This document shows positions 2,031 through 50,164 of a stretch of DNA of 64,000 nt, one piece after another. The position numbers were made by a program, and so were the translations under genes. Each line of letters starts with the position of its first letter. Position 1 is the first letter of the stretch. The notes beneath the pieces are model-generated. The model did no database searches, had not been told where the DNA came from, and saw only the letters and a list, made by a program, of their open reading frames with translations. Source of the stretch: Eledone cirrhosa (Eukaryota); the NCBI GenBank assembly GCA_964016885.1, contig OZ024746.1:57908001-57972000 (forward strand). The letters run 5' to 3'.

Positions 2031-4935
2031 GTTTCTTTTCATATTTCTCACGGTCATATTCCAGTTAAGTAGCCTTCTCGTTTAGTTCGACGATGATACA
2101 CTTCCTCAAATTGATAGTCACCGACCCAATGTTAGGAATAATCATTATTATGACTATTATTAATTTTATAATTATCAATATCCACTCATTAACACAAAGG
2201 GAAATAATATTTATTACGGCGTTTATTGATTGATATCACAAAATTCATAATTTATTTATTTATGGTTTAAAATATTGTAATGAAAAAAATTGATTCTCAT
2301 ATTTAAAGATTTAATTTGATTCATTCGATATGATAATTGAATTTTTGAAAAACTAATACAGTACAATTATGTGATTAAAATCAGTACTGTTTTCCTTGGT
2401 GTCTGGTGGAAACGCCAAATTGCTGGAGATAGATTTGTTGTGTTGAGTTACGTCTCTTTAGATTCAACTAGAGCTTGTGTTGACATCACATTGTTGCTAT
2501 TTTGGATGTTAGTCATTGCTTGGATTGGACGTCCGTCAATTACGACGAAGAAAAACCTGTCCACATAACGTGACTTTTCAAGGAGATTCATTGTGATGAT
2601 ATGCGTCAAGTTTGGCATTTAAATTACAGGTATCGGACGTCATTCCAAACAGTTTCCCTCTATTCAATTATTTTCACAAGAATGAGTGTGATCATAGGCT
2701 AGGAAAAACGTTCTACAAAGTTTTTTAACTTGGAAGGGAACTAATGATTTCGAAGCAAAGAATTCTTAAATATTTGACCACGTTGTCTCAACCAAACCTG
2801 GGAGAAAAAGGAATTCGAGTGTTGACCATCGGGTTTCTTTTGTAAATGGAAAATATTGCAATAATAATTTGTGATTATTAGTTAGACTTACATATAAAGG
2901 AAAGTTAACTTATTTTATATCAGCAAATCAGTTTTCTTGGAGATGGTTGATTGACCTGTCACATACTTTGCATACACCACTTATATACCTCATGCATCGA
3001 AGAGATCTAAACTAATAATGATTAAGTTGAAGTGGGGGTACTGTGATATATTTGAACAAATAAACCAGATATAGACGATCAATTTCTTGGTCTGAATACA
3101 ACCAAATTCACACAGAGAGAAGGAAATAGAAAGTCTATGCGAGAGCAAGTCCAAAAGAGAAACAGTGACGGTGGAGTAACAAGATTTATAAAGCGTTATC
3201 TCATCCACCTCTGTGCATTTTGCTTTCAAATTCAGTTGCATGACCGCGAAAAGCGTTAATACTTCAGCTAAGTGTTGAAAATAGAAAATAGTCTTAGTAA
3301 CAGGATGATAAATATAAAAGAAATATGCCTTGGTCTGAGTTGCCGATCAATTTCTGACATTTTCTGTAAATATAAAGATGTGTATTTAGTATATTGGATT
3401 CACAATCGTAACAACGAGCATGGCACGTTATTTTATTCATGAGTAAGACGCTTCATCTTCACGTTAATTTTACTTAAAGAAGTGGGGACCCTAGAAACTT
3501 CCAATGCGATGCAACTTCATTCAAGGTTAGTGAGGAGTGCGAAGATGTGAACTATATATGTTCTTTTCTGCGCCCATCCTCGGAAGCAACATTTTCTAAG
3601 TATCACCAGTGATGTATCCTTACACCCTTATTAAGGTAACCCAAGAATTGTTGGTCAAAACCAATTGATGTACTGATACTATCAGCTCGCCTCAGCCATA
3701 ACAAACTAAATTTCATCTCTGCATCTGCAAATGTTTCATGAAACTTCTCCTGCTCGCTCCTACAGGGATTTCTAGGCCTTAATAAAGGGACTAAATCGGC
3801 TACCAAGGTTGTTTTTCTTCCCACTCCCATAACACTCAAGGTTCCTTCAGCCTTACTAAGTGAACCTCCTACAATCAGTTGACATCATACTTACACTGGT
3901 ATGTATCTCATTCTCTACCAATTTCTCTAGTAGTCTTACATCACTTTCTCGTAATTTCCTCTGCGTCTGTCGGTCAGTTCTCCCAGGCAAGGGAAAACCT
4001 CCAGTAGAATGATCTGTCTTGTCACAAAACAAAAACAAAATAGCCAATGACTGTAAACATCATATATCAAATTTTGTGGCGTTGATATGAACAAATAAAC
4101 CGATTTATATATATCAAGTTACTTCACTGTCCGAGATAACGATGATTGGAAATAAGTGGATATGACATGAGAATAGAGGATGTTAACTAGAATTACACAC
4201 ACCCGACAAGGTCTATCTAATTCCAACGTCTCTTGTGTTTTAATTTAATATTTAATCATTTATCAACGTAATTTACATACCTCCGCATAGATGCAAAATA
4301 TCATTATTCCTACATTTTTAAACGTAAACACAAACACACACTTATATATACAGACTCATACACACACACATATGCGCAATGAGGTGGAGTTAAAAACATT
4401 AATATTGATCACAGCTTCCACGACGGCTTAGAATTAGGAGGAAGAAAGTTGTATCTCAGACAACAAAACATCATCACATCCTACTCAAAAAAGTCCGAAA
4501 AGGTACTGTAGCTTGACTGCAATATTTTTTATCAAACTCGAAAAGATGAAAGCTATAGCTTAACTCCCCGGAATAAAAACTCCTAGTGCAGACTATAGGC
4601 CAAGTACTTAATTTAGCTCAGGCAATTCAACAACAACAGCAACAACAACAAAATCAATATTTCTACTAATCATTTCTGCAATAATTAACACAACATAAAT
4701 AATATAAGTAATTTCTAATTAGTCCTGAAATTTGCGTGGGGACAAAAAAAAATAGTTAACGATCCTGTGCAGATGAATAAACAATCAGAGATTTCGACTT
4801 AAGGAATAAAAGGAGAGAAGCAACAACTAATAGTCATCAATAATAGAAGCAGTAAAAACAATAGTAAGAAGAACTAATACTACAATAACAACAGCAATTA
4901 TTAATAAGACAATCGAAATATCAATAACAATATAA

Positions 4936-18620: not shown

Positions 18621-19502
18621 TAAAATGGAAAAGAAAATAATATAGTTATTCTATATTATAAAATCTATACAAAGACCTGTTTTCTGTTTTTTTATAATTT
18701 GTTATATTTTTTTGTATGGTTTTCTTTCTATTTAAATTTTGTTCATGCACGTATACCATATACGAATGCACGTATGTGTGCATCTACCTATATGTATAGA
18801 GAGAGAGGGGAGAGATAGAGAGAGACAGAGAGAGAGGGGGACAGAGAGAGAAAGGGAAAGAGAGGGAGAGGAAGATAGAGAGAGAGAGGAAGATAGAGAG
18901 AGAGCAAGAGAGAGAGAGAAAGAGGTGTAAATGCCGACCGAGGCTCCAAGTGGTTTCGGTTTAATGTTCTCCCCAGTCTGAGGACGCTCTCTCTCTTTTT
19001 CTTTCTCCCTCTCACTTTCTCTCTCTCTCTCTCTCTCGCTCTGTACACATATATATATATGCCTGTGTTCGTGTATTCTAGCGTGTGTGTGTGAATGTGT
19101 CTATATTCCTGTTTGATAGGTGTGTGTGATAAGGTAATCAATAATTAATATAGTATATCGAATCAATATAATAGTTGTTATTAATGGCGACTGTTTAATT
19201 CGAAGTTTCGTAGCCGTTATTTGTCTATTAGAAAGTTATATGTAGAATTAGGTAAGAGGCAAAGCCACTTTAAGTTAGATGAACAGGAATTCGGTTTTGA
19301 AAACATTTGTCATTTGTTAGCATGGTAGTATTTTAATATGAGTCTCGACTTGTTGAAACCTAATAAAAATATTTATTAAAAAATAAGTACTTATCTTTTT
19401 TCGAAGTAACGTCTTTTCTATATTTCAAATATTGTTGTACATAGCTGGTTGACATAAGTACTGGGAATATTACAAATTAGTACGTCCAAAGGCAAGTGAC
19501 CA

Positions 19503-20432
19503 TAATAATTGTTTCTACTTTTGGCACAAAGCCAGCATTATGCCAGTATATTACTGGTACTTTATTTTATCGACCCCGTAAGGATGAAAGGTAAAGTTAA
19601 CCTCGGCGGGATTTGAACTCAGAATAGCAAGGGCCGTACATAATAATTGTTTCTATTTTAGGCAAAAGGCCAGGAATTAACCAGTACATTACTGGTACTT
19701 TATTTTATTGTCCCCGTAAGGATGAAAGGCAAAGTTAACCTCGGCGGGATTTGAACTCAGACTGTAAAGGGACGTAACTATGCTAGAAATCATGGCGTCC
19801 AACCCTCTACCGATACTGCCAATTCACCGCCCTCATAAGGGCCGTACATAATAATTGTTTCTACTTTAGGCACAAGGCCAGCAATTACCCAGTGTATTAC
19901 TGGTACTTTATTTTATCGACCCCGTAAGGATGAAAGGCAAAGTAAACCTCGGCGGGATTTGAACTTAGACCGTGAAGTGACGTAACTATGCTGGAAAGCA
20001 TGGTGTCCGACTCTCTACCGATACATCCAATCCACCGCCCTCAAGGGCCGTACATAATAATGATTTCTAGTATAAGCAAAAGACCAGTAATTTGGGGGGA
20101 GGGGAAAGCAAGGTTATAATTTTGTCATATATTTCATGATACTATGAGGATTGAACCCGTTATACATTATATTCTGGTGGGAGACTAAAATTGACGTGGT
20201 TATTATAATGATTTCTTGTATAGGCACAAGGCCAATAAATTGAGGAGGGGGGAAGAAAGTCGATTAAATCGAACCCAGTACGTTGCTGGTGCTTTATTTT
20301 ATTGACCCCGTAAGGATTAAAGGTAAAGTTAACCTCGACGGGATGTGAACTAAAAGCGTAAAGGGTCACAACTCTATGCTGCAAAGCATGGCATCCGATC
20401 CTCTACTTATAGTGCCAATCCACCACCCTTCA
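19503..20432 (-). mobile_element. cluster of ~5 S1 SINE copies or fragments
   Basis: Repeated TAATAATTGTTTCTA...GGCGGGATTTGAACT...CCACCGCCCTC units. Confidence 0.85.
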
Positions 20433-24067: not shown

Positions 24068-24307
24068 GTATACAGATCAGAGCAAACAGCACGGACACTC
24101 TATCTCAAAATTATTTTTGAAAAGCATTTAGAAATGCGCAACCGGTAAAAACTTAAAAACTTAAAACCACAACTGAATACTAACCCATACAATCACTAAT
24201 ACTCTTTTATTCCTAATTAAACCATTTTTCAACTGTGAACAATTTGTCAGCATTTTCTATTCCGTTTACCAATATATAATAACTTGTGTGTTACACCTCT
24301 ATTCTTT

Positions 24308-24356
<49 letters not shown>

Positions 24357-24359
<3 letters not shown>

Positions 24360-26216
24360 TATAGACATAGAATATTCGAAAATATTCTGTATGTTTATAA
24401 TAAACATTTTGAAGACCTAATCGCTATAGAATAGAATACGTCACGTATTACAATTAGATTCTCGATAAAAGCAAGGGAAGTAATCTACGCGTTTCATTCT
24501 TGTTAGAAATCATCAGGACTACATATCCAGTGCTTTTATCGAGAATGACACAGCTAGAGACTTATAGAATACTTAGCTGTGTACAGGAACTGGTTTGAAA
24601 GAGCGGTTGCCGGTCCGGCAGAAATTAGAAATTGGAATAAATGCTCTGAAATAGCGATATATATGTGAATATAGACATAGAATATTCGAAAATATTCTGT
24701 ATGTTTATAATAAACATTTTGAAGACCTAATCGCTATAGAATAGAATACGTCACGTATTACAATTAGATTCTCGATAAAAGCAAGGGAAGTAATCTACGC
24801 GTTTCATTCTTGTTAGAAATCATCAGGACTACATATCCAGTGCTTTTATCGAGAATGACACAGCTAGAGACTTATAGAATACTTAGCTGTGTACAGGAAC
24901 TGGTTTGAAAGAGCGGTTGTCGGTCCGGCAGAAATTAGAAATTGGAATAAATGCTCTGAAATAGCGATATATATGTGAATATAGACATAGAATATTCGAA
25001 AATATTCTGTATGTTTATAATAAACATTTTGAAGACCTAATCGCTATAGAATAGAATACGTCACGTATTACAATTAGATTCTCGATAAAAGCAAGGGAAG
25101 TAATCTACGCGTTTCATTCTTGTTAGAAATCATCAGGACTACATATCCAGTGCTTTTATCGAGAATGACACAGCTAGAGACTTATAGAATACTTAGCTGT
25201 GTACAGGAACTGGTTTGAAAGAGCGGTTGCCGGTCCGGCAGAAATTAGAAATTGGAATAAATGCTCTGAAATAGCGATATATATGTGAATATAGACATAG
25301 AATATTCGAAAATATTCTGTATGTTTATAATAAACATTTTGAAGACCTAATCGCTATAGAATAGAATACGTCACGTATTACAATTAGATTCTCGATAAAA
25401 GCAAGGGAAGTAATCTACGCGTTTCATTCTTGTTAGAAATCATCAGGACTACATATCCAGTGCTTTTATCGAGAATGACACAGCTAGAGACTTATAGAAT
25501 ACTTAGCTGTGTACAGGAACTGGTTTGAAAGAGCGGTTGCCGGTTCGGCAGAAATTAGAAATTGGAATAAATGCTCTGAAATAGCGATATATATGTGAAT
25601 ATAGACATAGAATATTCGAAAATATTCTGTATGTTTATAATAAACATTTTGAAGACCTAATCGCTATAGAATAGAATACGTCACGTATTACAATTAGATT
25701 CTCGATAAAAGCAAGGGAAGTAATCTACGCGTTTCATTCTTGTTAGAAATCATCAGGACTACATATCCAGTGCTTTTATCGAGAATGACACAGCTAGAGA
25801 CTTATAGAATACTTAGCTGTGTACAGGAACTGGTTTGAAAGAGCGGTTGCCGGTCCGGCAGAAATTAGAAATTGGAATAAATGCTCTGAAATAGCGATAT
25901 ATATGTGAATATAGACATAGAATATTCGAAAATATTCTGTATGTTTATAATAAACATTTTGAAGACCTAATCGCTATAGAATAGAATACGTCACGTATTA
26001 CAATTAGATTCTCGATAAAAGCAAGGGAAGTAATCTACGCGTTTCATTCTTGTTAGAAATCATCAGGACTACATATCCAGTGCTTTTATCGAGAATGACA
26101 CAGCTAGAGACTTATAGAATACTTAGCTGTGTACAGGAACTGGTTTGAAAGAGCGGTTGCCGGTCCGGCAGAAATTAGAAATTGGAATAAATGGTCTGAA
26201 ATAGCGATATATATAT
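24357..26216 (-). repeat. 6 x 310 bp tandem array, one hammerhead per unit (non-LTR retrozyme-like)
   Basis: Units start at 24357, 24667, 24977, 25287, 25597 and 25907; only about three single-base differences were seen; (TA)n flanks. Confidence 0.95.
24480..24522 (-). ncRNA. minimal type I hammerhead ribozyme, unit 1 (repeats every 310 bp at 24790, 25100, 25410, 25720, 26030)
   Basis: Minus strand GTAGTC CTGATGA T TTCT AACA AGAA T GAAA CGCG TA GATTAC; stem III palindrome ACGCGT; stem I extended by a perfect 16 bp helix (24458-24473/24531-24546). Confidence 0.9.
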
Positions 26217-27017
<801 letters not shown>

Positions 27018-30919: not shown

Positions 30920-31135
30920 GAATGCCATGGTTGACGGAGGCTCGGCTCTGTAAGGTATAGTAATTTTTAACCGTTAAAACAATTGTAAATTGTTTAAAAC
31001 TTGAACCAAATTGTTGATAAAGACACCCTCCTCCTCGTGAGAGGGGTCTTTCTGTCCGTTATTTGGCCCTTCGGGGTTAAATAACCAGTTATTGGGGTTT
31101 TGTACCCAAAATTTCATTTTAAACAAAAAAACAAC

Positions 31136-33232
31136 ATGGCTACGAAAAAGAAATTTCATACGTCACTCCCACTCATTCCGTCTTCTTCTTCCTCAATCAT
31201 CACTACAGCAGAGAGAAGATTGTCTCTCTCCCTCCCTTCTTTAAATGTGTCTCTCTCCCTCCCTTCTCTTTCGCAAGCGACGAAAGAAAAGAAAAGTCTC
31301 GTGCAAAGCGTGCAAGGTTTCTCCACGACGACGACGACAGCGACGAAACAGGTGTGCGGGAAATACGAAAACCCAGTTCATTCGTCTGACGTCAGGAATA
31401 ATAGCAGTAGCAGCCGTAATAACAACAGCAACAGTGACAATGAAAACAACAGTAGCAGCCGCAACAGCATCACCAGCAGCATAAACAACAACAGCATTAG
31501 CAGCAGCAACACCAACAACAACCACAGCAACAGCGGCGGAGGCAGTAGTCGTAGTACCTGCAGCAACAACAAAAGTACCAGCAGCTCTGACGACAACAAC
31601 AACAGCAGAGAAAAACCAATCTCATTTGCAGGTATTGCGAAAAACCTGGAAACAATCCTCATAACAAATGAGGAATTAGAGGAAGCGAAGAAGATGGTGA
31701 CAAAGAACGGACACCGAGCAATCTGCAAGGCAGCGAAAAATTTTTTCGAAACCCAAGAGCACTGTACGGTCACGTACCGTACAGTAAGTACAAAATCCCG
31801 TAGGGTGGAAAGAGCCACAGAGGCCCAAATACAAAAAGCCTTGGGGTCTGTGTGGCAGAGGAAAACGCACATCACCCGAGGCAAAAAATACGCCACCGTA
31901 GACGTACTTTTTGCCACACCCCAGGAGGCAAAGGCCCAATCAGTAGTGACCCTAAGGAGCGAGGAAATGGTGTTGGTGCCCTCCTACTGTGGGCAAAAAA
32001 TTGTGAGGGTCAAACTAACCCACGTCCCCCCCGGAATGACCCCTTCTTGGCTGGCCGCGTCTGTCCTCGTCGGAATCGAGGACAAAACAACTGTACTGCA
32101 AGTACAGAAAAAAGTAAGAGAAGATTGGGTCGGCTCCTCCATTGAGATGCTAATCCAAACCAACCAGGAGTGCATCGAAGCTATCCCGGATGTGATAGAC
32201 TTCGATAACGGCACTCAACTGCCCATAAGTGTTGAGGGCAAACGCCCGAAATGCTTTCGCTGTGGATCGAAGACTCACCTCAGGGCCTTCTGCAACGAGA
32301 AGACCATGAGAAAGGAGAAAACCCCCCTCCTCCCGAATCCGGTTCCACGGCTACCAGCAACAGGACAAGCGGCAACCAGGAACGATAGGTCCGTGGCACC
32401 CATACCCACTCCACGGAAATCAAAGACAGCAGCAGCAGTGGAAATATTAACAACAACAACAGCAATACCAAATGCAGCTGCAACAGAGACTCCAGTGCAA
32501 ACATCACCAACAACAACAAGTGAAAGAGTGGAGCTGGTACCCCTCCCCGACCTTACAGAATCAGACATGGAGTGTGAGGTGGGAGAGGGATGGCAAAAGG
32601 TCGTAAGAAGGCACAAACGCAGAAGCAGCGCATCGTCGCCTTTGAAAAGGGAGGAAAGAAATGAGAAAAGGGTAAAGTCTACTGCAAAGAGACCCACAGC
32701 AGCAACACCACCAACACCATCACCACCCACACCAGCACCACCATCACCACCGGCGACAACCCCACCGCCAACAACACCTTCAACACCACCACCACAAGCA
32801 CCAACATCGCAAACACAACAACAAAACACACACACCCAGCAACAACGACAAGAAAATAGCAGAACCACACCCCACCCCCAGAAAAACAAATGCACGGCAA
32901 TAAACACACACAACAAGAAACTAATGACTTACATAATTGAACACACAGACATTTCACAACAGGACTACATAATACCAGCACCAATCAAAACGCCAACTAA
33001 CATAAGACTGCTAAAAATAGCACAGAAACAATACACAAACATTAAAACGAAATTCCCCAACGCAGTTGGTGATTTCAGGGACCTAGGAGGAACCATTAAT
33101 CGAAGAGTATATTCAGACATTCTCTTAGAAGAGCCGACGACCAGCCGAAGGGACGATTCAACGGTCCCTTCACCAGACGATCAAGTGAAAAGGGATGTAA
33201 AAACCATCCCTCCTCTACCAAAAGTACGGTAA
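31136..33232 (+). CDS. Tx1-like ORF1 (gag-like nucleic-acid-binding protein), ~698 aa from the first ATG
   Basis: Open frame; CX2CX4HX4C knuckle CFRCGSKTHLRAFC; N/S-rich and P/T-rich low-complexity flanks. Confidence 0.88.
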   Translation: MATKKKFHTSLPLIPSSSSSIITTAERRLSLSLPSLNVSLSLPSLSQATKEKKSLVQSVQGFSTTTTTATKQVCGKYENPVHSSDVRNNSSSSRNNNSNSDNENNSSSRNSITSSINNNSISSSNTNNNHSNSGGGSSRSTCSNNKSTSSSDDNNNSREKPISFAGIAKNLETILITNEELEEAKKMVTKNGHRAICKAAKNFFETQEHCTVTYRTVSTKSRRVERATEAQIQKALGSVWQRKTHITRGKKYATVDVLFATPQEAKAQSVVTLRSEEMVLVPSYCGQKIVRVKLTHVPPGMTPSWLAASVLVGIEDKTTVLQVQKKVREDWVGSSIEMLIQTNQECIEAIPDVIDFDNGTQLPISVEGKRPKCFRCGSKTHLRAFCNEKTMRKEKTPLLPNPVPRLPATGQAATRNDRSVAPIPTPRKSKTAAAVEILTTTTAIPNAAATETPVQTSPTTTSERVELVPLPDLTESDMECEVGEGWQKVVRRHKRRSSASSPLKREERNEKRVKSTAKRPTAATPPTPSPPTPAPPSPPATTPPPTTPSTPPPQAPTSQTQQQNTHTQQQRQENSRTTPHPQKNKCTAINTHNKKLMTYIIEHTDISQQDYIIPAPIKTPTNIRLLKIAQKQYTNIKTKFPNAVGDFRDLGGTINRRVYSDILLEEPTTSRRDDSTVPSPDDQVKRDVKTIPPLPKVR

Positions 33233-33267
33233 GTGGTCTTTCCCATCTTTTCCACTCTATTTTAAAC

Positions 33268-36200
33268 ATGACCTCACTCAGAATAGGCAGCATAAATGCG
33301 CGTGGCTTGGGGTCGTCATGGAAGCAGGGTCACCTGCTCAACGACCTCAGGTCACTAAACATAGATGTAGTGGCCATCAGCGAGACCAGAATCTCCGAAG
33401 CACGGGCCTTCGCACCGATCTTCGGCGGCTACGATGTGTACGCATCTCCCAGCCGTCCTGGATCCGGTGGAGGAGTTGCTGTGCTTTTTCGGAGAGGTTT
33501 GGATCTCGCCATACGGGCCATCTTCCTGGACCCAGAGGGTAAGCTGGTGGTGCTGGACGTGACCAGCGGAGACGGGCAAGCTTTCAGGCTAGTGGCCGTC
33601 TATGCCCCGACAGGAGCAGGGCGGCCTGATTTCTTCCGGCGTCTGGAGACCTTTCTTGGAACGTCCCGCTCTTTAGTGTTAGTGGGCGACTGGAACGGGA
33701 TCTTAGATGCACGCTGGGACTGTGTGGGATTAGCGGATAGGGGTGGAGGGTGCAAGAGCCTCACCAACCTGCTCAGGCGTTTTGAACTGTCTGACAGGTA
33801 CCGATTGGATTTCCCGAATGTGCCAATGTGGACTTGGACAAACCGCATAGGGTCATCCAGATCATATCTAGATAGAGTATTTTGTAGGGAAATAGATAGG
33901 TCTAGCATAGGCTGTCCACAATTCAAGATAGTCAGCTACACGGACCACAAATTCGTGACCTGTGTGCTTGACTTAGATAGGCTTCATAGACGAGGACCCG
34001 GCTACTGGAAGCTAAACGCGTCCTTACCAGCGCGCAAGGCCTACAGAGACCGGATTAGCGAACTAGTTAAGCGGGCGTTGACGGGGGCCATCGTCAACAA
34101 CAAGTGGTGGTTTGCTCTGAAAAGAGCGATTAGAATAGAATCGATTAGGTTTAGTAAGGCTTTAGCAATAGAGAAAAATAGAGCAGAGGGAGAACTAGTT
34201 AGAAAATTAGACGAGGCGCTTAGCAAAGGCATTGCGACCGACGTGCTTGCGGCGAAATTGGCCCTTGACCAATTCTTCAATGCAAAGCACGAAGGCTGCG
34301 TTGTCAGAGCTAGGGTGCGTGCTCTCAGACACGAGGGGACGAAAGCCGTTCAATGGGCCCGAGTGGCGGAGGCGCGTCGTGGCAACAAAGCCACGATCCG
34401 GTCTTTGGTGGACCACGACGGGCGCATGCTACTCGATCCCGGGCAAATGTGTGAAGCTTTTCAGCGACACTTCGCTCAGCTGTTCGGGGGCAGCGGGGGG
34501 CCGGGTAGAGGGATGGACTTTAGTGTCTACCTCGACGGACTGCCGCGGCTCTCGGCCACTGAGGCTAAGTGTTGCGAAAAGCCGATAACAGCCGCTGAAG
34601 TACGGGAGGCAATGACTGGCTGCACAAGGGGTAAATCGCCTGGTTTGGATGGTCTGCCCTATGAACTTTACGTACAGATGCCAGACTTGTTCGGAGGCCT
34701 CTTGGCGGACGTCTACTGCAACTGGCAACAGAACGGGAGAATTCCCAGTTCTGTGAGCCGAGGAGCGGTGGCACTGCTGAGAAAGGATCCGAACAAGGGG
34801 GATAACATAGACAATTTCCGGCCCATAACTCTGCTAAACACAGAGTTTAAGATTTTGGCCAAGGTGCTAGCAAAGAGGTTGGCGCTTGTCGTTGGTGGTC
34901 TGGTGGGAGAGGCGCAGACAAGCGCCATTCCCGACAGATCCATCCACGACAACCTCCACCTCATGCGATACATCGTAGAGAGGGTAGCTAGGGAACCTGT
35001 CACGGGTGGGTCCTTGATCAATTTAGATCAGTCGAAAGCTTTCGATAGGGTCGACCATCGTTACCTAGCGGCAGTCCTGAGGGCGGCTGGCTTTGGGCCC
35101 GTCTTCAGAGGCTGGATCGCTGCCATGCACAGCGACATCTGCTCTGTGGTGAGAGTGAACGGTCACCTGTCGGAACCGTTCAACATCATGCGCTCGGTCC
35201 GCCAAGGATGTCCCCTCTCGTCCCTCTTGTACGTATTGACTCTCGAGCCATTACTGCACAAACTGGAGACGTTGAGGGGAGTCCCGCGCGAACTAGGATG
35301 CGGAAGATCCGTGTCAGCATATGCGGACGATGTCACCGTAGTGGTGTCGAACGCCAAACACATCGAGGCGATCGGCACTACACTAAGAGAATACGAAGCG
35401 GTGACAGGAGCAATGATCAACCAGGAAAAGTCAGTGGGCCTGCAGCTCGGCACCTGGAGAGGCAGGTCCATGCCGTCCAACAGCGTCGTCGGGCGCTGGA
35501 CGGACGGACCGGTTAAATTGCTAGGGGTCTGGTTCGGTCCGGACCTCCAGACGGACAAAAACTGGGACGAGGTGACGAGCAGGGTGGCTTCTCTCACCCA
35601 GAAATGGGCGGAGAGGAAGCTATCCCTGAAAGGTCGAGCGGAGGTGGCTAACGCGTACATCGCGTCTGTCATCTGCTACCGCCTGACCGTCGTACCTTGT
35701 CCTAAGCCTCGCCTGACTGCACTGGAGCGTTTGCTCTTTCGCTTTTTGTGGAAGGGACGTGCTCCGATGGTCAGGCGGTCCATCTGTTGTCAACACCCGC
35801 TACGTGGAGGGCTGGGCATGCCGTGGCTGATGATGCGCAGGCACGCGCTCAGGCTACGACATCTCCACCTCTTCCTCGACGGTGATCAGGTGTGGTCGCC
35901 GTTTGCTAGACGCGTTTTTCCCCAGCTCGTTTCCTTGACGGAGCTGCAGTCCTGGGTCAAGCGAAGACCGAGAGGGAGCGCCTGGAGACTGGAATGTCTT
36001 CAGGCGCTCACAGCCCTCGACCAATCGGGCAATGTGATCGGTGGAAACTCCACCTCGGCGTTCTATAGAGGATTAGTGGAGGGGAAGAGCGACGACGTAC
36101 TTGGGGAAACTCTAGGCGTCGACGAAAATCAACTAGCCAATCTCTTCGGAAGAACTTTCGGGCCGGGGCCTATGGACAACTTCCAGAAATCTCTGGCCTG

Positions 36201-36687
36201 GCAGTGCTACCGAGGAGCCTTGCCAGTTCGGGATAAACTCTACAGGCATGGAGGTGCCGTCAGCCGGGCATGTCCGAGATGCGCGCAGGGCGACGAAACC
36301 GTCCTGCACGCACTCGTCCAGTGTCCGAAAATTGCTGACTTGTGGGTTTATGTTGAACACCTGCTGTCGCGTTTAGGACGGATCCAGCTATCATCTGAGT
36401 CTATCGTGAGGATTGCCCCGCCCTCCTCCTTTAGCCGGGAAGGGCAGGCAGTTTTTATCTGTCTGGTGGCCATGGCGAAAGAGATAGTATGGTGGACACG
36501 TTTGAAAGGGCTGAAGACAAGCACTTACCTCTTCGGTGATGCTCTGATTGACTTTTTCAAATTTCATTTGAAAAGGAAAATCAGAGTAGAGAGGGAAGTG
36601 CTCTCTTCCCAGCATTTTGTTGAAAGATGGGTGAGAGAAGCAAGAATGGCCCGAGTGAATGGGCCGACTCTGAGTATATATCTGTAA
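33268..36687 (+). CDS. Tx1-like ORF2: APE endonuclease, reverse transcriptase and C-terminal CCHC; intact, 1139 aa
   Basis: SINARG, ISET, GDWN, YLDR and TDH (APE); KSPGLDG, RPITLLN, DQSKAFD, QGCPLS and YADD (RT); CPRC..ETVLHALVQC. Confidence 0.96.
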   Translation: MTSLRIGSINARGLGSSWKQGHLLNDLRSLNIDVVAISETRISEARAFAPIFGGYDVYASPSRPGSGGGVAVLFRRGLDLAIRAIFLDPEGKLVVLDVTSGDGQAFRLVAVYAPTGAGRPDFFRRLETFLGTSRSLVLVGDWNGILDARWDCVGLADRGGGCKSLTNLLRRFELSDRYRLDFPNVPMWTWTNRIGSSRSYLDRVFCREIDRSSIGCPQFKIVSYTDHKFVTCVLDLDRLHRRGPGYWKLNASLPARKAYRDRISELVKRALTGAIVNNKWWFALKRAIRIESIRFSKALAIEKNRAEGELVRKLDEALSKGIATDVLAAKLALDQFFNAKHEGCVVRARVRALRHEGTKAVQWARVAEARRGNKATIRSLVDHDGRMLLDPGQMCEAFQRHFAQLFGGSGGPGRGMDFSVYLDGLPRLSATEAKCCEKPITAAEVREAMTGCTRGKSPGLDGLPYELYVQMPDLFGGLLADVYCNWQQNGRIPSSVSRGAVALLRKDPNKGDNIDNFRPITLLNTEFKILAKVLAKRLALVVGGLVGEAQTSAIPDRSIHDNLHLMRYIVERVAREPVTGGSLINLDQSKAFDRVDHRYLAAVLRAAGFGPVFRGWIAAMHSDICSVVRVNGHLSEPFNIMRSVRQGCPLSSLLYVLTLEPLLHKLETLRGVPRELGCGRSVSAYADDVTVVVSNAKHIEAIGTTLREYEAVTGAMINQEKSVGLQLGTWRGRSMPSNSVVGRWTDGPVKLLGVWFGPDLQTDKNWDEVTSRVASLTQKWAERKLSLKGRAEVANAYIASVICYRLTVVPCPKPRLTALERLLFRFLWKGRAPMVRRSICCQHPLRGGLGMPWLMMRRHALRLRHLHLFLDGDQVWSPFARRVFPQLVSLTELQSWVKRRPRGSAWRLECLQALTALDQSGNVIGGNSTSAFYRGLVEGKSDDVLGETLGVDENQLANLFGRTFGPGPMDNFQKSLAWQCYRGALPVRDKLYRHGGAVSRACPRCAQGDETVLHALVQCPKIADLWVYVEHLLSRLGRIQLSSESIVRIAPPSSFSREGQAVFICLVAMAKEIVWWTRLKGLKTSTYLFGDALIDFFKFHLKRKIRVEREVLSSQHFVERWVREARMARVNGPTLSIYL

Positions 36688-36987: not shown

Positions 36988-39900
36988 AGCTGCATTTATC
37001 TTGCTTTATGTTCATACGAGTTATCACCAAGTCACAACCAGTGACCTCAAGAGACAACAAGGTCCGCCATGTTCAAGAAAGAACATACATATTCACACAT
37101 GCATCTTTAGTGTTTAGACCTGTGATGTACTTATATTGACAGAATCTTCCTTAGTATATGGGCAGTTCCCATTAATACTATCTTTTGTATTTCTCCTATA
37201 CGCGGGTTTCCTGGGATTTGCGATATGTAATCATTAGACCCCTTAGGTATCATTCCCAGAGCGCCTACAACCACTGGTATTGTTTTAGTTCTCAATTTCC
37301 ACATTTTACCAATTTCTATCTCCAGGTCCTTATACTTGCTCAATTTTTCAAATGTTTTTATAGATACATTCTTGTCTATTGGAACAGACATATTGGAACA
37401 GACATATTTCAATATTATATCAGGTCTGTTTGCATTTATTTTTCGGTCTGTTTGGATGCTAAATTTCCACAAGATTGAGATGTGATCTTTTTCAAGTATG
37501 GGAGGTGGTTGATGCTCCCACCAATTCTTTTGATGGGGCAGGTCAAAATGCTTACACATTATCCAATGTATGAATCGTGCAGCTCTGTCATGCCTGTTTA
37601 GGTATTCGGTTGGAGCTATAGGACTGCACATTGAAATTATATGGTCAATGGTCTCTGGTTGTTTTTTGCATACACGGCATAATGGGCTGCACCCATTTTT
37701 TATTATGTTGGCTTGGTAATTTTTTGTTGGCAGACACTGATCTTTTGCCGATATAATCAGTCCTCCAGTCTCCGATTTCAGTCCAGAGGATGCCAACCAC
37801 TGATGGGTTAAAGTTTTGTCAACATCAGGATTGTTAGCTCGCTCTGGGTATTTTCCATACAGAGGCTGTTCTTGCCATTTCTTAGCCAGTTTCTGTAGCA
37901 GTTCTTTCTTTGCAGTTACTTTTACCTGCTTTGCTTTTTCTGTGTTTTCCATTTCAGCAGTAAATGGGACTTCTGAAATTTGTAGTCCATTACTGTATCA
38001 TTGTGCATCTTTTGTAATGGAATATGATCTTTTGATGCTTTCGTGTTTCAAAACGAGTTTGATCATCCAATCAAGTGATTCCCTTAGATATGTAGATAAT
38101 CCAATTGTTGCAGTTTTCAACGCAATGTCTAACTGGATTAATCCACGTCCTCCTTCTTTCCTAGGTAGATATATTCTATCTATATCTGCCTTAGGGTGAT
38201 GCATTCTGTGCATGGTTAAGAATTTTCGAATTTTTGTATCGAGCCTACGGATCTCTGTGCTTGACCAGTTGATGAAATTGTGACTGTAGGTTACTACTGG
38301 TATGGCAAGCGTGTTTATGGCATCGATCCTATTCCTTGCATTCAATTCCGTTCTTAAGATTGCTCTTACTCTGCGGTAACATTCCTTCCTTATCCTTTCC
38401 CTCATTGTCGAGTGCTTGATTCCGTCTCCTTCACAAACACCTAGATATTTGTAAGTTTTTTCTTGATCAAGTTCCCTTATCACGTTCCCCCGATCAAGAT
38501 TAATGTCTGAACTCTTCAGCAGCTTTCCTCTGGTGAACGTTGCTTTGGCGCATTTATCTAGTCCAAACTCCATTTTAATATCATCACTGAACTGCTTCAC
38601 AGTGGATAATAGCCCTTGCAATTGTTCATCATTTTTTGCAAATAGTTTCAGGTCATCCATATAGAACAAGTGATTAATAGTTTTGTCATAGACTTTATAT
38701 CCATGTTTTGTTTCATTGAGCATTTTACTTAATGGTATAAGTGCGATGCAGAATAAAAGCGGTGATAAAGAGTCACACTGAAAAATTCCACAATTAATAT
38801 TAACTTCTCCAGCTTCCAGTGATTTTGTTTCACTATTCAAAAGGAGTGTCGTTTTCCATGTTTTCATACTGAATGACAAAAACCTCCTGACAACGGGGGA
38901 TACTTTGAAAATCTCTAAACATTTTTCAATCCAACTGTGTGGCAAACTATCAAATGCTTTTTTATAATCTATCCAAGCAATCGATAGATTTTTGTGTCTA
39001 TTATGACAATCTTCCAGAATCATTTTGTTAACCAGAAGCTGATCCTTACAGCCATATGAGCCTCGTTTACACCCTTTCTGCTCAATGGGAAATAGGTCAT
39101 TTGTTATCAGGTGGTCATATGTGTATTCAGTTAGGACTGATGTTAAAATTTTATACATTGTGGTCAAGCAAGTTATCGGTCTGTAATTTTTGGGATTGTT
39201 TGTCTCATCATTCTTCGGAAGCAGGAATGTAATGCCGTTAACTAGCCATGAAGGTATCTTTTCTGGCTCCTTAACTATTTCATTGTAAAGTTGGGCTAAC
39301 AGCTCATGAGACTCTGTGAAGGCATTTATCCAAAAGTTTTGTATTTTGTCTTTTCCTGGGGATTTCCATTTGCTGGTTTTTCTTAGAGCCAAGCGCAACT
39401 GTTCAACTGTTATATTTTCCCATGTTTGTTCCTCAAGGTGAGCTGTATCTTTCATTTGTCTGTCTATCCATGGGGCATGTGTGTTATGAACTTTTTCTTC
39501 GGCTCAGATCTTTTCCCAGAATTCTTGCACTTCCTCCTTGGGTGGTATTGATTTAGCAGTTATTGTTGACTTACCAATTTTTCTGTAGAAGTTTCTTTGG
39601 TTGTTTTTGAACATATTATTGTCCTTATAGAATCTAGATCGTTTTTCAAAGCGCCTTATACGAGCAGCTTTGGTCGACACTTTTTGCTTGATTATTTCTA
39701 TCAGCATGTCTATGTCACATGTTGATTTTATACTGTCCTTTTTTTTCGATTTTCTAAGTTTAGTTTGTTTAACACGTTCACCTACTTTATAGTTTGTTAA
39801 AATTTCTGTCAGATCGGAGAAGGTTTATTTGGCGATTGATGTTCTCTTGCCAAGTAGATTTCTTGTGGGAATTCCTTTGTTTTTTCATCTTCAGTCCACA

Positions 39901-40921
39901 TAAGTAAGTGGTGACTTTAGCCGATGCATAATAGAGATGATTTAAATCAGTAATGTTTAGTTTGTTTGTGATGATAATGTTTTTGAGAATTATGTTAGTC
40001 TTGTGTATTATCTTTTGGTTCTGTTTGGAGTTCTGGATCTTAGGGAGGGTGTCTCGTTGCCCCATGTCAGATTCTTTCATTTTCATCCATTCGATCATAA
40101 TTTCATCCTTCAAGTTGGCAAGTTCATTCTCATTAATTTCCTTATCATTTACGATCTCATTATTTTCATTTGGAGTTTCATCCTGAGCATGCACTCCCTC
40201 CATTTTTTCGATCCTTTCTTTAATTTGTTCTGTTGCCAGTGATTCCGCCCCAACCCTGGGATTCGAAGTGTTACAGTTTACCTCGTTTTCACTGACACAT
40301 GTTTCATTTTCCCTTCGTTGACTTTGTGCTAATAGCTTGATCTGATCAATTTCTATATCAGTTAGTAACTTTTTTCTTACAATATTTCTTCGTATATTGG
40401 CTAGTTTGTTACTGTCAATATAGCCTCTGTTTTCGGGATGTTTCTTTTTCCAGTTGATATCTGTCTGTTCTGTATTCGATGTATTTGATGGGTAGTACAT
40501 GGCAGTGTAGAAAGCCTCAAGGACTTCTTTATTATCTTCCCTTGACCATTTTTCTCTCTTTTTCTTTGAATTTCTTGGTGGTGAGCATGGAGGGCCAACA
40601 GTAGGAGTATTCCGGTTATGGGAGGTCTCCAGCTCCGAAGTGATGGGAAGGATTGAACCATTAGCTGATTTTTCGACCCCAGTCTGGTTCCTCCCTGAGG
40701 GATGCGGCCCTTTTTTACCCGGGTGACGGCCGATCCGGTATGAGATTTTATCATTAGACATTTACTTTATTTTGTCGCGTTTTATCCTTATCCGCCAAGG
40801 GGTAATCATTTCGTGTTACCACTTCTAGAACGAGTGTCAACCAAGACTAGAGGGGTCGTTCTCCCCTAGAGACACGGCTATTCCCCGCCGGCCGCCATCC
40901 CGGTATTTCTTGGTCACGGGG
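36987..40921 (-). mobile_element. near full-length R4/Dong-like RLE retrotransposon, family B
   Basis: Single-ORF architecture, GC-rich ~160 nt 5'UTR and ~145 nt 3'UTR ending in (TAA)n; the 5' boundary is approximate. Confidence 0.88.
37131..40761 (-). pseudogene. disrupted RT-RLE polyprotein of family B
   Basis: Pieces 40761-39787, 39707-39504, 39455-37998 and 37952-37131; KSPGKD, YRPITCL, DYKKAFDS, YMDD, CRVC..ETIDHIISMC, RPDI; stops, frameshifts and a lesion in the RLE. Confidence 0.9.
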
Positions 40922-41920
40922 TTTTCTTTTTGTTGTTTTTTTTAAAATTGTTATTATCATGAGTGGTTCCTTAATGTGAGCATTGCGTGGCTTAAGAATG
41001 AAATTATTAATAATTGTCTCCACTCCAGGTACAAGGCCAGCAATCACCCAGTGCATTACAATAATATAATATACTTTTTGTTGTAGTTGGCTGTTATTGT
41101 TGTTGGCTATGTCGGTGGTGGTGCCGGGGCTTTTTATATTGTTGGTGAGGAAGGGGTGAGCCAGCAGTCCCATATTTGTTGATATTGTCGTTTGGCCTTG
41201 GCCAGGTAACTAAGTCAATCTATTTATATATTTTGCTAGCCACTCCCTTGTCTAGTGATACCCCCACCTTCCCCGTTCTCTCTCAAGTTAACAGGGGAAT
41301 AGTGGTGGTAGCATTGAAGGAGTGGTGGCGGCGGGGAGATGTGGGAGACAGTAGCGGCGGTATCGATACTGAGACAGTGGTGGTGGTGATGTCGATACCG
41401 AGGCAGTGGTGGTGGTGACGTGATCGTATTACTGTAGTGATGGTGTTGTAGCGGTGGTAGCAATGAAGGAGTGGTGGCGGCGGTGATGGGATAGTGGTGG
41501 TAATGATGGCAGTAGTGAGTGGTGGTGGTGAAATTCCCGCTATCTGGCTGTTGTGTTTAGTGTACACAGAGAGGTGATGGGGTAGGTGTTGTATCTAGTT
41601 TCTGGTGTTGTTTGGCTGTTCTATATAGCGTAGACAGAGGATGGGGAGGGGTTCTTCTTCCAATTATAGCCATTTTCCTTTTTGAATATACAATGTACAA
41701 TACAAAGTTGAATATTTGAATATTTGACCCTTATAACAATATATTTTGGGTCCGAATTTTTTGGGGCTCAAGCCGGATGCTTTACGTAGCATTTGTACTA
41801 AGAGTTGTTATTTCACAAATGATTTAAATATGTTAAAAATTCAAAACTTACGGGAGCGATGTCATGACCTTCCGTCACCTCGTGTGTCTTCTTCCCTTAT
41901 TACTATTATTATTATTGTTA

Positions 41921-42284
41921 TTGTTATTCCTTGAATCTCAGTCATTGATGTTGGTTAACTGGAAAGTCCGTTGGATTGAATATCAAGCCACTACCTGCAG
42001 CCTCAGATATTCAGGACGTATCGGAGGGTTCTTGCTGTTCCAAGCAAGCATGCCTTTTGAAGCGTTCCAAAAAGCGTGAAGGGGCCGATTTTCTTTAACC
42101 ATCCCTGGAAACCTTTGGAGATAGTCCCCAGTGCGCCTATGACAATCGGGATCACTTTGACTTCATGGCAGTTCCAAATCCTTTTCACCTCCCACTTTAG
42201 GTCCTGGTATCGGTTAATTTTCTCCCTCTCCTTCTCTTGCACTCTCGTGTCGGACGGGCAGGCCACATCCACAATCAGGCACGA

Positions 42285-42285
<1 letters not shown>
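41921..42285 (-). mobile_element. R4/Dong family A, 5'-truncated (~365 bp)
   Basis: C-terminus ..LQKACLLGTARTLRYVLNI plus 3'UTR; (TTA)n on both sides. Confidence 0.9.
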
Positions 42286-42357
<72 letters not shown>

Positions 42358-43645
42358 GTTGTTATTCCTTGAATCTCAGTCATTGATGTTGGTTAACTGG
42401 AAAGTCCGTTGGATTGAATATCAAGCCACTACCTGCAGCCTCAGATATTCAGGACGTATCGGAGGGTTCTTGCTGTTCCAAGCAAGCATGCCTTTTGAAG
42501 CGTTCCAAAAAGCGTGAAGGGGCCGATTTTCTTTAACCATCCCTGGAAACTTTTGGAGATAGTCCCCAGTGCGCCTATGACAATCGGGATCACTTTGACT
42601 TCATGGCAGTTCCAAATCCTTTTCACCTCCCACTTTAGGTCCTGGTATCGGTTAATTTTCTCCCTCTCCTTCTCTTGCACTCTCGTGTCGAACGGGCAGG
42701 CCACATCCACAATCAGACACGATCTTTTTTCTTTGTCCACAACCACCAGGTCAGATCTATTGTGTTCCAGTTTTTTGTCCGTCTGTATCCTAAAATCCCA
42801 CAGCACCTTCACCTGATTGTTCTCCATCACCGCCTATGGCCTATGCTCATACCATTTCTCAGAATGTGGTAAATTGTTTACTTTGCACAGGTGCCAGTGG
42901 ATCACCCTGCCCATCACATCTTGTCTCCAGCCCTTATAGTGGGTCTGGGCTAGGTGTTTACACTCGGACACAATGTGAGCCACAGTCTCCTCTCTCTCTC
43001 CACAGATCCTGCACAGTGGGCTAGCCTCCTCCTTGTAAATATGGTGCTTCAACCACTTTGTTTTGAGGGCCTGCTCCTGCGCAGCCATTAGCATTCCTTC
43101 TGTAGCCTTTTTGAGGTCTCCTCTTCTGAACCAGTTCCACGTCTGTGGATCTCTAAATTCAGTTTTCTCAAAGAAGTTACTATGAAGGGATTTTCCCTTA
43201 AGGCTGCTCTTCCTCCTTGATGTTATTTCCTCCTTGGACATCCCCTGGCCTACTGTCCCCTCCTTCAGTACAGTTCTGAGCATTGGCTCCTTACTATAGG
43301 TCACGTATTTGTATAGGTTGTTTTTCTCCATCTGAACACAGTCCTCTATGCTGATAAGACCTCTTCCACCCTCAGATCTCCTTAGGTAGAGTCTATCGAC
43401 ATCACTCCTCTTGTGGAACATGTTGTAGATAGTCAATAGCTTCCTAGTCTTCCTATCCATTTCTTTTTGTTCAGCAACATTCCATCTCAGAATTCCCGCA
43501 CTGTACCTAATAATAGACACAGCTCGGGAATTTACTGCGCTTATGGCATTTCTGCTGTTCAGATGTGCCTTCAATACGCTCCTTACTCTCCGAATGTATT
43601 CAGTTCTTAACAATTCCTTCATTTTTTTGTTCTTTATGCCATCAA
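42358..43645 (-). mobile_element. R4/Dong family A, 5'-truncated (~1.3 kb)
   Basis: EGGRGL, CRICGEREETVAHIVSEC and the RLE domain; one in-frame stop; same 3'UTR as the 41921 copy; (TTA)n on both sides. Confidence 0.92.
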
Positions 43646-43668
43646 TTATTATTATTATTATTATTATT

Positions 43669-44498
43669 TGCATTTATCTTGCTTTATGTTTATACGAGTT
43701 ATCACCAAGTCACAACCAGTGACCTCAAGAGACAACAAGGTCCGCCATGTTCAAGAAAGAACACACATATTCACACATGCATCCTTAGTGTTTAGACTTG
43801 TGATGTACTTATATTGACAGGATCTTCCTTAGTATATGGGCAGTTCCCATTAGTACTATCTTTTGTATTTCTCCTATACGCGGGTTTCCTGGGATTTGCG
43901 ATAAGTAGTCGTTAGACCCCTTAGGTATCATTCCCAGAGCGCCTACAGCCACTGGTATTGTTTTAGTTCTCAATTTCCACATTTTTCCAATTTCTATCTC
44001 CAGGTCCTTATACTTGCTCAATTTTTCAAATGTTTTTATAGATACATTCTTGTCTATTGGAACAGACATATCAATTAGCAGGCATACCCTCCTTTGAAAG
44101 TCCTTCAATATTATATCAGGTCTATTTGCATCTATTTTTCGGTCTGTTTGGATGCTAAAGTTCCACAAGATTGAGATGTGATCTTTTTCAAGTATGGGAG
44201 GTGGTTGATGCTCCCACCAATTCTTTTGATGGGGCAGGTCAAAATGCTTACACATTATCCAATGTATGTATTGTGCAGCTCTGTCATGCCTGTTTAGGTA
44301 TTCGGTTGGAGCTATAGGACTGCACAATGAAATTATATGGTCAATGGTCTCTGGTTGTTTTTTGCATACACGGCATAGTGGGCTGCACCCATTTTTTATT
44401 ATGTTGGCTTGGTAATTTTTTGTTGGCAGACACTGATCTTGTGCGGATATAATCAGTCCTTCAGTCTCCGATTTCAGTCCAGAGGATGCCAACCACTG

Positions 44499-44500
<2 letters not shown>
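43669..44500 (-). mobile_element. R4/Dong family B, 5'-truncated (~830 bp)
   Basis: Near-identical to 36990-37805 but with an intact RLE (RPDIILKDFQRRVCLLIDMSVP); (TTA)n on both sides. Confidence 0.92.
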
Positions 44501-44546
<46 letters not shown>

Positions 44547-44834
44547 GGCGACCTACGTAGTAAATCGTATCATCGTGAGCTCCGCAAAGGTTTGTTATTT
44601 CCGTTTGTTAAAAATTGCCATTTATGGAAAATTTTGATTGTTAACTATATATAAGCGCACATACATTGTTTTCCGAAAAGGACACCCAAAAAGATTGGGG
44701 CCTTGTGCCCAAAATTTAAACTTTTATGATTATCAAAAAAATTCTTTGAAAAAAAATGGCTAATTCACCACTGCACCAAGCAGCTGAAAGCCTTTCTCAC
44801 AAATTAACACCTCACACCGACACCACCATTGTAA

Positions 44835-46712
44835 ATGATATTACGTCTGCCAACACACAATTTAAGCACTAGCAATATTTTTAATTTGTCTCAGGCAGAC
44901 ATTCATTTCCCGCCATTATCAATGACTGCAGGTGTTAAAGCCACCACCACCACCGCGACAACAGAAACAAAAGGAAAAAATAAATCAACTCGTGATGTCG
45001 AAATATTTTCAACCAAAATGGACTCTCCCAAACCGACTTTCAATGACGTCACCACAACCACAACTGAAACTAAAATTAATAATAACAAAAATAACGATAG
45101 CAACAACAACAACAACAATGACATTAAAAAAACAACCCTGAGTTTTGCCAGAGTAGCAAAACAGTTCGAAGCATTTACGGTAACTCCGGAGGATTTAGAA
45201 AATGCCAAACAAATGGTAAAGAAAGATGGGTACAGGGTCAGCCTCACCCCGACCCCACCCCCACCTAATAAAATGGAGAATTGGCGCCTATGCACCGTGT
45301 CGTATCGAACAATAAATGTAACATCGCGCCGAGTGGAACGGGCATCCGAATCCCAAATCCCAAAAGCTTTGGGACGTGTGTGGCAAGAAAAACCCACATC
45401 AGACGTGGGCAGAAGTATGGAACCGTGGACGTGTTCTTTGAGACACCAGAGGAGGCTAGAGAACACTCCATGGCCCCATTAAGAAGTGACGACTTCACAC
45501 TCGTCCCAAGCTATTGTGGCCAGAGACTCGTAAAGATCAGGGTGACCCACGTTCCACCGGCCATCGAAATTCCCTGGCTAATAGCGGCCGTCCTCGGCGG
45601 CATCGAAGCCAACACAAAGATAATAGCAATAGCAAAAGAAAAGCAGGAGAACTGGTCCGGATCTGGGATGGAGCTCCTGATCCAAGCGGACCAAAAAAGC
45701 ATTGAGGAGATCCCAGAGGTAATAGACCTCACTGACGGCAGCCACCTCATCGTAATTGTCGAGGGCAGAAGGCCTAGGTGTGTCGTTTGTGGTGAAGGAA
45801 CACACCTAAGGGCTTTCTGCCCTCAGGCTAAAAGGTTGATGCCACCTCTCCTACCCACCCCAGTGACACAACCATCAACACCACCAGTAGCAGAGATGGC
45901 AGCAACAACTGTAGCAGCAACAACAGAAGCAACTATAACAGCAACAACCGAGAGCAACAGTAGCAAAACCAACACCACCTCCACCAGCAAAACCAACACC
46001 ACCACCACCCAACGCTTCAGAACTAGCACCAGCGCCTACACCATCCACCACGCCACAACCCAAACTAACGCCTGTGGAGAATTTTCCACTCCCAGGCCTA
46101 TCACAACTGGAGACAGATTGTGACGACGAGGAGTGGGAAACGGTATCAGGAAAAAAAAAGAAACCAAAAAAGAAAAAATCCTCTTCCTTCCCCCTCCAAA
46201 AACAAAATACAGAGGGAAACAAATAAATTAACAAACAAAATAGTTAGGACAGATATGCCACCATCCACACCAGCATCACCAACCCCATCAACCCAAACAC
46301 CAATACCATCACCATCATTAACCCCAACACCACCATCACCTACACCACAAAAGTCACCAAAATGCGAAACAGAAACAAACCCACAACAAACGCAAACAAA
46401 TCAAAACAACCAAAACGATACGCACTACACAGCATTAAATTTGAACAACAAGCAATTATTACACTACATCCAACACAACACCAGCATCACAGAAAAAAGA
46501 CTACACAACGACCCCAAAATTCACACCACCTCACACATACAAATCACTCGCATCACACCGATAACGTACATGACACTAAAACAAAAATTCCCCAAAGACA
46601 TCGGAGACTTCCGACAAGCACTCTCCAGGAGGATTTATAAGGACATCCTTCCTGAGGGGGCCATAAGCAGTGAAAAGGATGGAAAAACCGTCCTTCCTCT
46701 ACGAGAAGTAAG
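44835..46712 (+). pseudogene. frameshifted Tx1 ORF1 of a divergent type
   Basis: Three overlapping frames; CTVSYRT, LVPSYCGQ and the knuckle CVVCGEGTHLRAFC. Confidence 0.85.
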
Positions 46713-46750
46713 GTATGTGGTCTTTCCCATCTTTTCAACTCCTTTTCAAC

Positions 46751-49700: not shown

Positions 49701-50164
49701 TGCCAGTTCGGGATAAACTTTACAGGCATGGAGGTGCCGTCAGCCGGGCATGTCCGAGATGCGCACAGGGCGACGAAACCGTCCTGCACGCACTCGTCCA
49801 GTGTCCGAGCATTGCTGACTTGTGGGTTTATGTCGAACACCTGCTGTCACGTGTAGGACGGATCCAGCTATCAGCTGAGTCCATCGTGAGGATTGCCCCG
49901 CCCTCTTCCTGCCGGGAAGGGCAGGCAGTTTTTATCTGTCTGGTGGCCATGGCGAAAGAGATAGTATGGTGGACACGTTTGAAAGGGCTGAAGACGAGCA
50001 CTTACCTCTTCGGTGATGCCCTGATTAACTTTTTCAAATTTCATCTGAAAAGGAAAATCAGGGTAGAGAGGGAAGTGCTCTCTTCCCAGCATTTTGTTGA
50101 AAGATGGGTGAGAGAAGCAAGTATGGCCCGAATGAATGGGCCTTCTCTGAGTATGTGTCTGTAA
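46751..50164 (+). pseudogene. Tx1 ORF2 with stops and frameshifts
   Basis: Colinear with 33268-36687; TGA stops at 47507, 48935 and 49433; frameshifts near 47513 and 48518. Confidence 0.92.

Follow-up and report, generated by a model that had tools for sequence, protein, structure and literature searches.

A young retrozyme family in Eledone cirrhosa with the insertion anatomy of Penelope-like elements

Two questions run through the retrozyme literature: which machinery mobilises these elements, and whether their tandem units arise by rolling reverse transcription or by later amplification of DNA. Both are raised by a locus of Eledone cirrhosa, where a 64,000-nucleotide stretch of contig OZ024746.1 (hereafter the window) contains an array of 310-bp repeats, each with a hammerhead ribozyme. 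The family to which this array belongs is very young; the anatomy of its insertions, in our view, answers the first question and makes the second testable. It also offers a well-defined RNA of 310 nt, two nucleotides at which starts are predicted, a (TA)n target and, in the same genome, candidate full-length proteins of Penelope-like elements (PLEs). Nucleotides of the unit are numbered in the RNA sense, the first base past the cut being nt 1. The array and its parts are these:

24356..26214, minus strand: retrozyme array with one arm of 6.0 units (310 bp each); its 3' end in the RNA sense lies on the left at site A (nt 130), its 5' end on the right at nt 132
24480..24522, minus strand: type I hammerhead of unit 1, repeated at +310, +620, +930, +1240 and +1550
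24458..24546, minus strand: 16-bp distal stem closing the hammerhead, from sequence and fold
24486..24795, minus strand: cut-to-cut monomer of 310 nt, the predicted linear or circular RNA

TRF reports a tandem repeat at 24347-26219 with a period of 310, 6.0 copies and 99% likeness. The six units differ at only four positions in all (24920, 25545, 26194 and 26215), a divergence of 0.2%, which bears out the six nearly identical units described in the first-pass annotation. The unit has a GC content of 34% and holds no RT plus GIY-YIG reading frame; the longest ATG ORF lying wholly within the array encodes 30 aa, in keeping with the earlier remark that no meaningful ORF is present. That annotation had also placed a type I hammerhead on the minus strand of every unit, and the core motif CUGAUGA...GAAA...UA was indeed found on that strand in all six (at 24516, 24826, 25136, 25446, 25756 and 26066); its proposed cut at GUA, between 24486 and 24485, agrees with the sequence. 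In unit 1, a 6-bp stem I pairs 24522-24517 with 24485-24480, the core occupies 24516-24510, and GAAA and a stem III of ACGCGU complete the motif. The predicted cuts, after 24486 in this unit and at 24486 + 310n in the others, delimit five complete monomers. The computed fold of the 310-nt monomer (-72.5 kcal/mol, z -4.4, with none of 100 shuffles as stable) contains the 16-bp distal extension of stem I and the further hairpins listed before.

At gathering level, Rfam returned no hammerhead match for the window array, and below threshold it matched only HH9 (19.2 bits, E 0.058). Among five natural copies from three related families of this genome, 95% of the cells in the hammerhead alignment are paired and 8 of the 12 pairs carry two-sided changes, a value as high as which none of 500 shuffles gave, the rows being few and related and the figure not a probability. 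Stem II starts with a U-U mismatch, and stem III is a single pair capping a palindromic CGCG loop. Across the ensemble of monomer structures, stem II forms poorly (pair probability about 0.15) and stem III does not form, so that the word intact in the first-pass annotation applies to the core of the hammerhead; as a monomer it is predicted to be a weak ribozyme. The depletion of fixed variants in the catalytic core was not significant (0/32 against 6/125, p 0.35).

These properties invite comparison with the animal non-LTR retrozymes of coral, mussel and axolotl, which, in the available text of PMC7229834, are tandem units of 150-450 bp with low GC, a type I hammerhead in each unit and no ORF. 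The present family has a unit of 310 bp with less than 50% GC, hammerheads in six of six units, no coding capacity, many loci and target duplications longer than 4 bp; on every feature that sequence can test, it is a member of the class, and we regard it as a new retrozyme family. The stem III of the window resembles that of axolotl HHR_Amex1 (one pair, a palindromic tetraloop, activity as a dimer), and the U-U base of its stem II that of HHR_Amex2 (the same text). Axolotl hammerheads with such features are described there as cleaving poorly alone and well as dimers, and rolling reverse transcription is proposed, with PLEs named as candidates. Dimers of Xenopus retrozymes, in eight of nine cases, did not cleave in vitro. 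Cleavage and circles have been demonstrated for the PMC7229834 elements in the text available; for the E. cirrhosa family both are predicted from genome sequence. A further difference concerns layout: PMC7229834 reports no inverted arms (the word "inverted" does not occur in it), whereas the E. cirrhosa family is mostly two-armed with fixed ends. A recent study of vertebrate retrozymes (10.64898/2026.07.22.740005) reaches, in its available text, the same conclusion that we do, namely that these are non-autonomous PLE derivatives; it draws the link from co-occurrence and pseudo-LTR homology and favours local amplification as the source of the tandems. The words "tail" and "head" are absent from that text, and here the link comes from insertion anatomy, which points to arrays made at insertion. 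In the literature covered, which left most subscription papers, supplements and Repbase outside, we found neither two-armed, tail-marked retrozyme arrays nor a cephalopod retrozyme, so an earlier repeat-library entry is possible.

Copies elsewhere in the genome were located by sequence patterns. The 17-mer at the cut site has 17,196 exact matches in the 3.0-Gb genome (its reversed control has 0), which amounts to about 5.3 Mb of retrozyme (17,196 x 310 bp) and, at about 8.8 units per two-arm locus, to an estimated 2,000 or so insertions. Sampled from contig 1 were 11 loci picked by a hammerhead pattern and 80 of 115 regions picked by end patterns. Mapping yielded 95 segments: 74 complete two-arm loci, 10 complete single-arm loci (the window copy among them), 10 truncated by N or by the limits of the extracted sequence, and one stray piece of a related family, in L119. 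Thus 74 of the 84 fully visible insertions consist of two tandem arms joined head-to-head (5' to 5') within (TA)n. The arrays abut the (TA)n directly and have no LTRs; 70 of 85 passed a strict TA test on both flanks, the other 15 having mostly an interrupted TA run or an end called early. Target duplications, which can be seen only where the (TA)n carries an interruption, measure 12-15 bp in 8 clear cases among 35 informative loci; the script had flagged 17 of the 35, from which we dropped six matches of 6 nt and three possible overlaps with the element's own ends.

The outer ends are the most telling part of this anatomy. In every two-arm locus one outer end belongs to site A (nt 118-139, most often 130) and the other to site B (nt 157-172, most often 165): all 74 are A+B, with no A+A and no B+B. 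In the 41 two-arm loci that had a single pattern-matched end, the unselected end was always of the opposite class, and 9 of the 11 hammerhead-picked loci are A+B; the pairing is therefore not purely a product of selection. Genome-wide, the end patterns match 1,253 times for site A and 1,314 times for site B. The 35-nt interval between the two sites forms a "tail" that two-arm loci carry on one end only. The first-pass annotation had proposed a search for arrays with permuted ends; what the other arrays show are 3' ends fixed at two sites. It had also held that loci consisting of monomers with the same ends would point to duplication of DNA, and the other loci are multimeric: 114 of 148 arms have two units or more, both arms of a locus usually being multimeric, and arm lengths, which reach at least 20 units, are distributed smoothly and with a skew, as truncation would give. 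Its reading of a young non-LTR retrozyme family is thus supported. Inner ends fall throughout the unit (KS p 0.055); only 3 of 158 come within 5 nt of the cut, where about 5 would be expected, and the joins between inner ends mostly show a few bases of overlap or filler. At L032 and L101 and, by eye, at L038, the arms are joined through microhomology provided by the 16-bp distal stem. In L041, a GC-rich foreign piece of 272 bp (2899-3170), which matched nothing in the window or in the other fetched loci, lies between the arms and is possibly a captured RNA.

Two fixed starts, a one-sided tail and head-to-head arms are properties described for PLEs. In the available text of PMC11167929 (Frangieh et al.), a PLE protein is shown to cut AT-rich DNA on both strands and to extend both; it begins reverse transcription at two neighbouring internal positions of the RNA, and the 30-40 nt tail that they delimit is called unique to PLEs. 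The available text of 10.1101/2021.04.23.441226 (Craig et al.) describes PLEs with an inverted truncated arm, a one-sided tail and a preference for (TA)n. The EN+ elements of these two sources (Anolis Poseidon PAc in the former, Naiad/Chlamys and non-autonomous derivatives in the latter) share with our family, as far as those texts describe them, two starts that bound a one-ended tail of 30-40 nt, an inverted 5'-truncated arm, an AT-rich or (TA)n target and a hammerhead upstream of the start sites. The retrozyme differs from them in having no ORF, a unit of only 310 bp and arms of up to at least 20 units.

Many elements with RT and GIY-YIG are present in the E. cirrhosa genome, and coding PLEs read at L157, L180, L189 and L199 are likewise two-armed, with A and B ends, in (TA)n; their tail measures about 65 nt in the first and about 43 nt in the other three. 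Their clade names were assigned from motifs and are to be taken as presumptive. One very young family, whose many identical or near-identical copies contain open frames of 900-905 aa and often lie head-to-head (for example L202-L213, the frame in L213 lacking an early ATG), is judged from its sequence a promising candidate for activity. For one of the PLE proteins, the closest relative with a name comes from Octopus bimaculoides (62% over half of the query). A comparison of the retrozyme with the 3' ends of six PLE families, drawn from 50 GIY-YIG loci read among 10,595 candidates, revealed no homology above chance (local alignment, z at most 2.0; tblastn of ORFs). The retrozyme acts like a non-autonomous PLE, although no homology was found to the pseudo-LTRs of the six autonomous families compared, and we are highly confident that a PLE mobilises it. 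The PLE 3' ends in L152, L159 and L146, and the window at about 24115-24150, contain a hammerhead-like fold whose core reads UUGA rather than CUGA and lacks G8; judged by sequence, these folds are probably inactive. The retrozymes, unlike them, have kept the full core.

The window copy belongs to the minority single-arm type, and its surroundings tell something of how such loci accumulate:

24312..24356, no strand assigned: (TA)n target and 3' end, the site A junction
26206..26240, no strand assigned: 5' junction, the end of the unit's AT-rich stretch followed by short repeated TATATATGAA pieces
24631..24665, minus strand: 35-nt "tail" from site A (nt 130) to site B (nt 165), one internal unit as an example
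24073..24315, plus strand: left neighbour, the 5'-truncated 3' end of a coding PLE family, by comparison with the PLE end in L159
26235..26920, plus strand: right neighbour, an older repeat of about 490 bp that bears a hammerhead (at 26618), present in about 1.4 diverged copies

The left neighbour differs from the end of the L159 PLE by 1 mismatch in 243 bases, and one of its 31-mers has 8,223 exact copies in the genome. Since the array stands between a coding-PLE 3' end and an older hammerhead repeat, TA runs here collect successive PLE-type insertions. A chimeric insertion of two families, with the 310-bp arm and the right-flank element entering together, was rejected, since the two right-hand copies differ at about 10% of positions and the units of the array at only 0.2%. 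The 5' junction with its TATATATGAA pieces may be a microhomology or templated join, and the whole number of units is likely a coincidence, the AT-rich stretch at nt 132-139 matching the target.

We consider it probable that a Penelope-like reverse transcriptase-endonuclease wrote these arrays into (TA)n in a single step, in which it most likely travelled round a self-cleaved, ligated 310-nt RNA circle. One could envision the following course. Minus-strand transcripts would self-cleave, probably as dimers held through the ACGCGU palindrome, and a host ligase would close the 310-nt monomer; we infer that 310-nt linear or circular RNAs are produced. The PLE protein would nick both strands of the (TA)n with a stagger of 12-15 nt, and the two free 3' ends would prime cDNA on the same RNA at A and at B. 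Each cDNA would run several laps, and joining of the two cDNA ends by microhomology would create the head-to-head centre. Should only one primer be extended, its end would be joined to the target to leave a single arm, as in the window.

The variants carried by the arms bear on the nature of the template. Of 67 loci open to this comparison, 65 have arms of identical haplotype (chance match 0.13; L063 is discordant), and of 16 fixed variants confined to one locus, 13 are present throughout both arms, which comprise up to 22 units. This pattern is explained by a one-unit bottleneck followed by multimerisation at insertion. Together with the strict pairing of one A with one B end, the shared haplotype suggests that both primers act on one RNA, a point that bears on the PLE mechanism itself. 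Altogether, 32 distinct variants are fixed across whole arrays. A monomer template would lead one to expect about 11 newly fixed variants in 74 loci (an upper bound), and 13 were observed. Private variants number 125 in 254 kb (0.15 per unit, a private divergence of 0.05%). The cut site shows no unit-private indel in 815 passes, which argues against repeated jumping on a linear monomer, since this should scar the cut. Inner ends, too, avoid this position. Single-base insertions at monomer nt 2-3 make up two of the three locus-fixed indels (L031, L035, L080, L095 and L101; L092 and L111); lying two bases past the cut, they could be ligation scars. Judged from these patterns, rolling-circle copying of one RNA circle fits better than either local amplification or linear multimers, and we hold with fair assurance that the template was mainly circular.

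The same two-start PLE insertion could instead have used, as its main template, an uncleaved linear multimer transcribed from an existing array, circles being rare or a by-product. Such a template is favoured by variants in register at the outer units of both arms in L077, L089 and L107, the last of which switches haplotype after two units in both arms and fits a long linear multimer; by the predicted weakness of the hammerhead; and by the finding, in the available text of PMC11167929, that PLE protein in vitro works mainly on uncleaved RNA and can do without the hammerhead. It also predicts, as a circle does, no pile-up of inner ends at the cut. Yet it offers no route by which the 32 variants could have become fixed across arrays, 13 of them locus-unique in both arms. 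The three in-register loci, over 203 overlapping units, fall about tenfold below the roughly 30 that we estimate for an all-linear-multimer template at 0.15 per unit, an upper bound because that rate includes later mutations and assembly errors. No locus has an inversion junction copied from another, apart from the junction at the 16-bp stem, which microhomology explains. We therefore rate this template unlikely, though it is the rival to be taken most seriously.

Improbable by comparison is the satellite route of 10.64898/2026.07.22.740005, in which PLE-type insertions of one or two units would have been expanded locally by slippage or unequal exchange. Local duplication or conversion of DNA does occur at several loci: a few variants are ladder-like or duplicated (L040, L041, L048, L083 and L100) and the junction of L031 is duplicated, local duplication being directly visible at that junction and in L040, L041 and L083. 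A satellite should, however, display ladder-like shared variants and arbitrary ends, and what is found are only 19 intermediate variant patterns against the 125 private ones, and fixed 3' ends. Two inverted arms, mostly multimeric at 0.05% private divergence and with truncation-like lengths, would have had to outpace mutation at about 2,000 loci. Still less credible, to the point of being very improbable, is an origin through a LINE other than a PLE, by twin priming, or through an assembly artefact. LINEs of two types lie in the window, and for both the clade label is our presumption:

31085-36687, plus strand: Tx1/L1-like LINE with two open frames, ORF1 of 715 aa and ORF2 of 1195 aa (the latter with AP endonuclease, RT and zf-RVT)
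44835-50164, plus strand: second Tx1/L1-like LINE, broken
37131-44552, minus strand: RTE-like LINE fragments, each ending in short-triplet microsatellites, with an RVT_1 match at 37998-39500

The intact ORF pair of the first could provide the machinery, and L1 twin priming likewise yields head-to-head inversions. Against this, the retrozyme has no poly(A) or simple-repeat 3' tail of its own. Its outer ends are both fixed internal sites 35 nt apart, a property specific to PLEs according to the available texts of PMC11167929 and 10.1101/2021.04.23.441226. Locus-specific haplotypes and target duplications speak against collapse or misassembly.

To return to copying of a circle by a PLE protein, the fixed variants contain a further lead. 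With polarity set relative to the window's unit, A-to-G changes in the RNA sense account for 9 of 29 fixed and 9 of 97 private substitutions (Fisher p 0.006). Three of them have recurred: A276G is seen on 6 haplotype backgrounds, A20G on 4 and A260G on 2, and in each case an A-U pair becomes G-U. Recurrent A-to-G changes would result from A-to-I editing of the RNA, but also from selection for structure combined with recombination, and we treat this as a lead only. It is tempting to speculate that the roughly 2,000 insertions record twin priming on a single ribozyme-made RNA circle, which a Penelope protein reverse-transcribed in rolling-circle fashion from both nicked strands at once, and that the recurrent stem changes are A-to-I edits of the circle fixed in the germ line; as a whole this proposal is tentative, its chances being somewhat below even.

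The unit also turns up in other sequencing runs. Twenty runs under 17 organism codes, none of them listed as RNA, contain 71-94% of its words, and in three of them (X1, X3 and X8, from different organism codes and studies), compared with window 24075-24700, it forms one perfect looped contig of 340 nt at a depth of 10-15. The flanking PLE end, for all its copies in the genome, is missing from this contig; such holes prove nothing. The contig was rejected as evidence for circular RNA, a DNA tandem collapsing to the same loop. Trace carry-over is the likely source of the unit in foreign runs; spread of an abundant RNA is a less likely source, as is transfer between species, and these data do not support horizontal transfer.

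A sister retrozyme family (L123:2440-2870; L214-L243) is 78% alike over nt 59-154, the start-site region, and different elsewhere; it is likewise head-to-head, with two end classes and shorter arms. In sequence, this suggests that nt 59-165 form a putative protein-binding module. Among 30 loci of this closest sister family, no PLE ORF was found besides a neighbour at L123/L214. The window also contains tandem copies of a short SINE-like repeat:

19501-20092, no strand assigned: SINE-like tandem copies with periods of 138 and 208 bp

At least four further hammerhead-bearing repeat families were noted, at 15689, 26618 and 56193 of the window (plus strand) and in L105, L102, L157:683-810, L159:4130-4330 and L164:8067-8600; in several of these, stem II likewise starts with U-U and stem III is palindromic.
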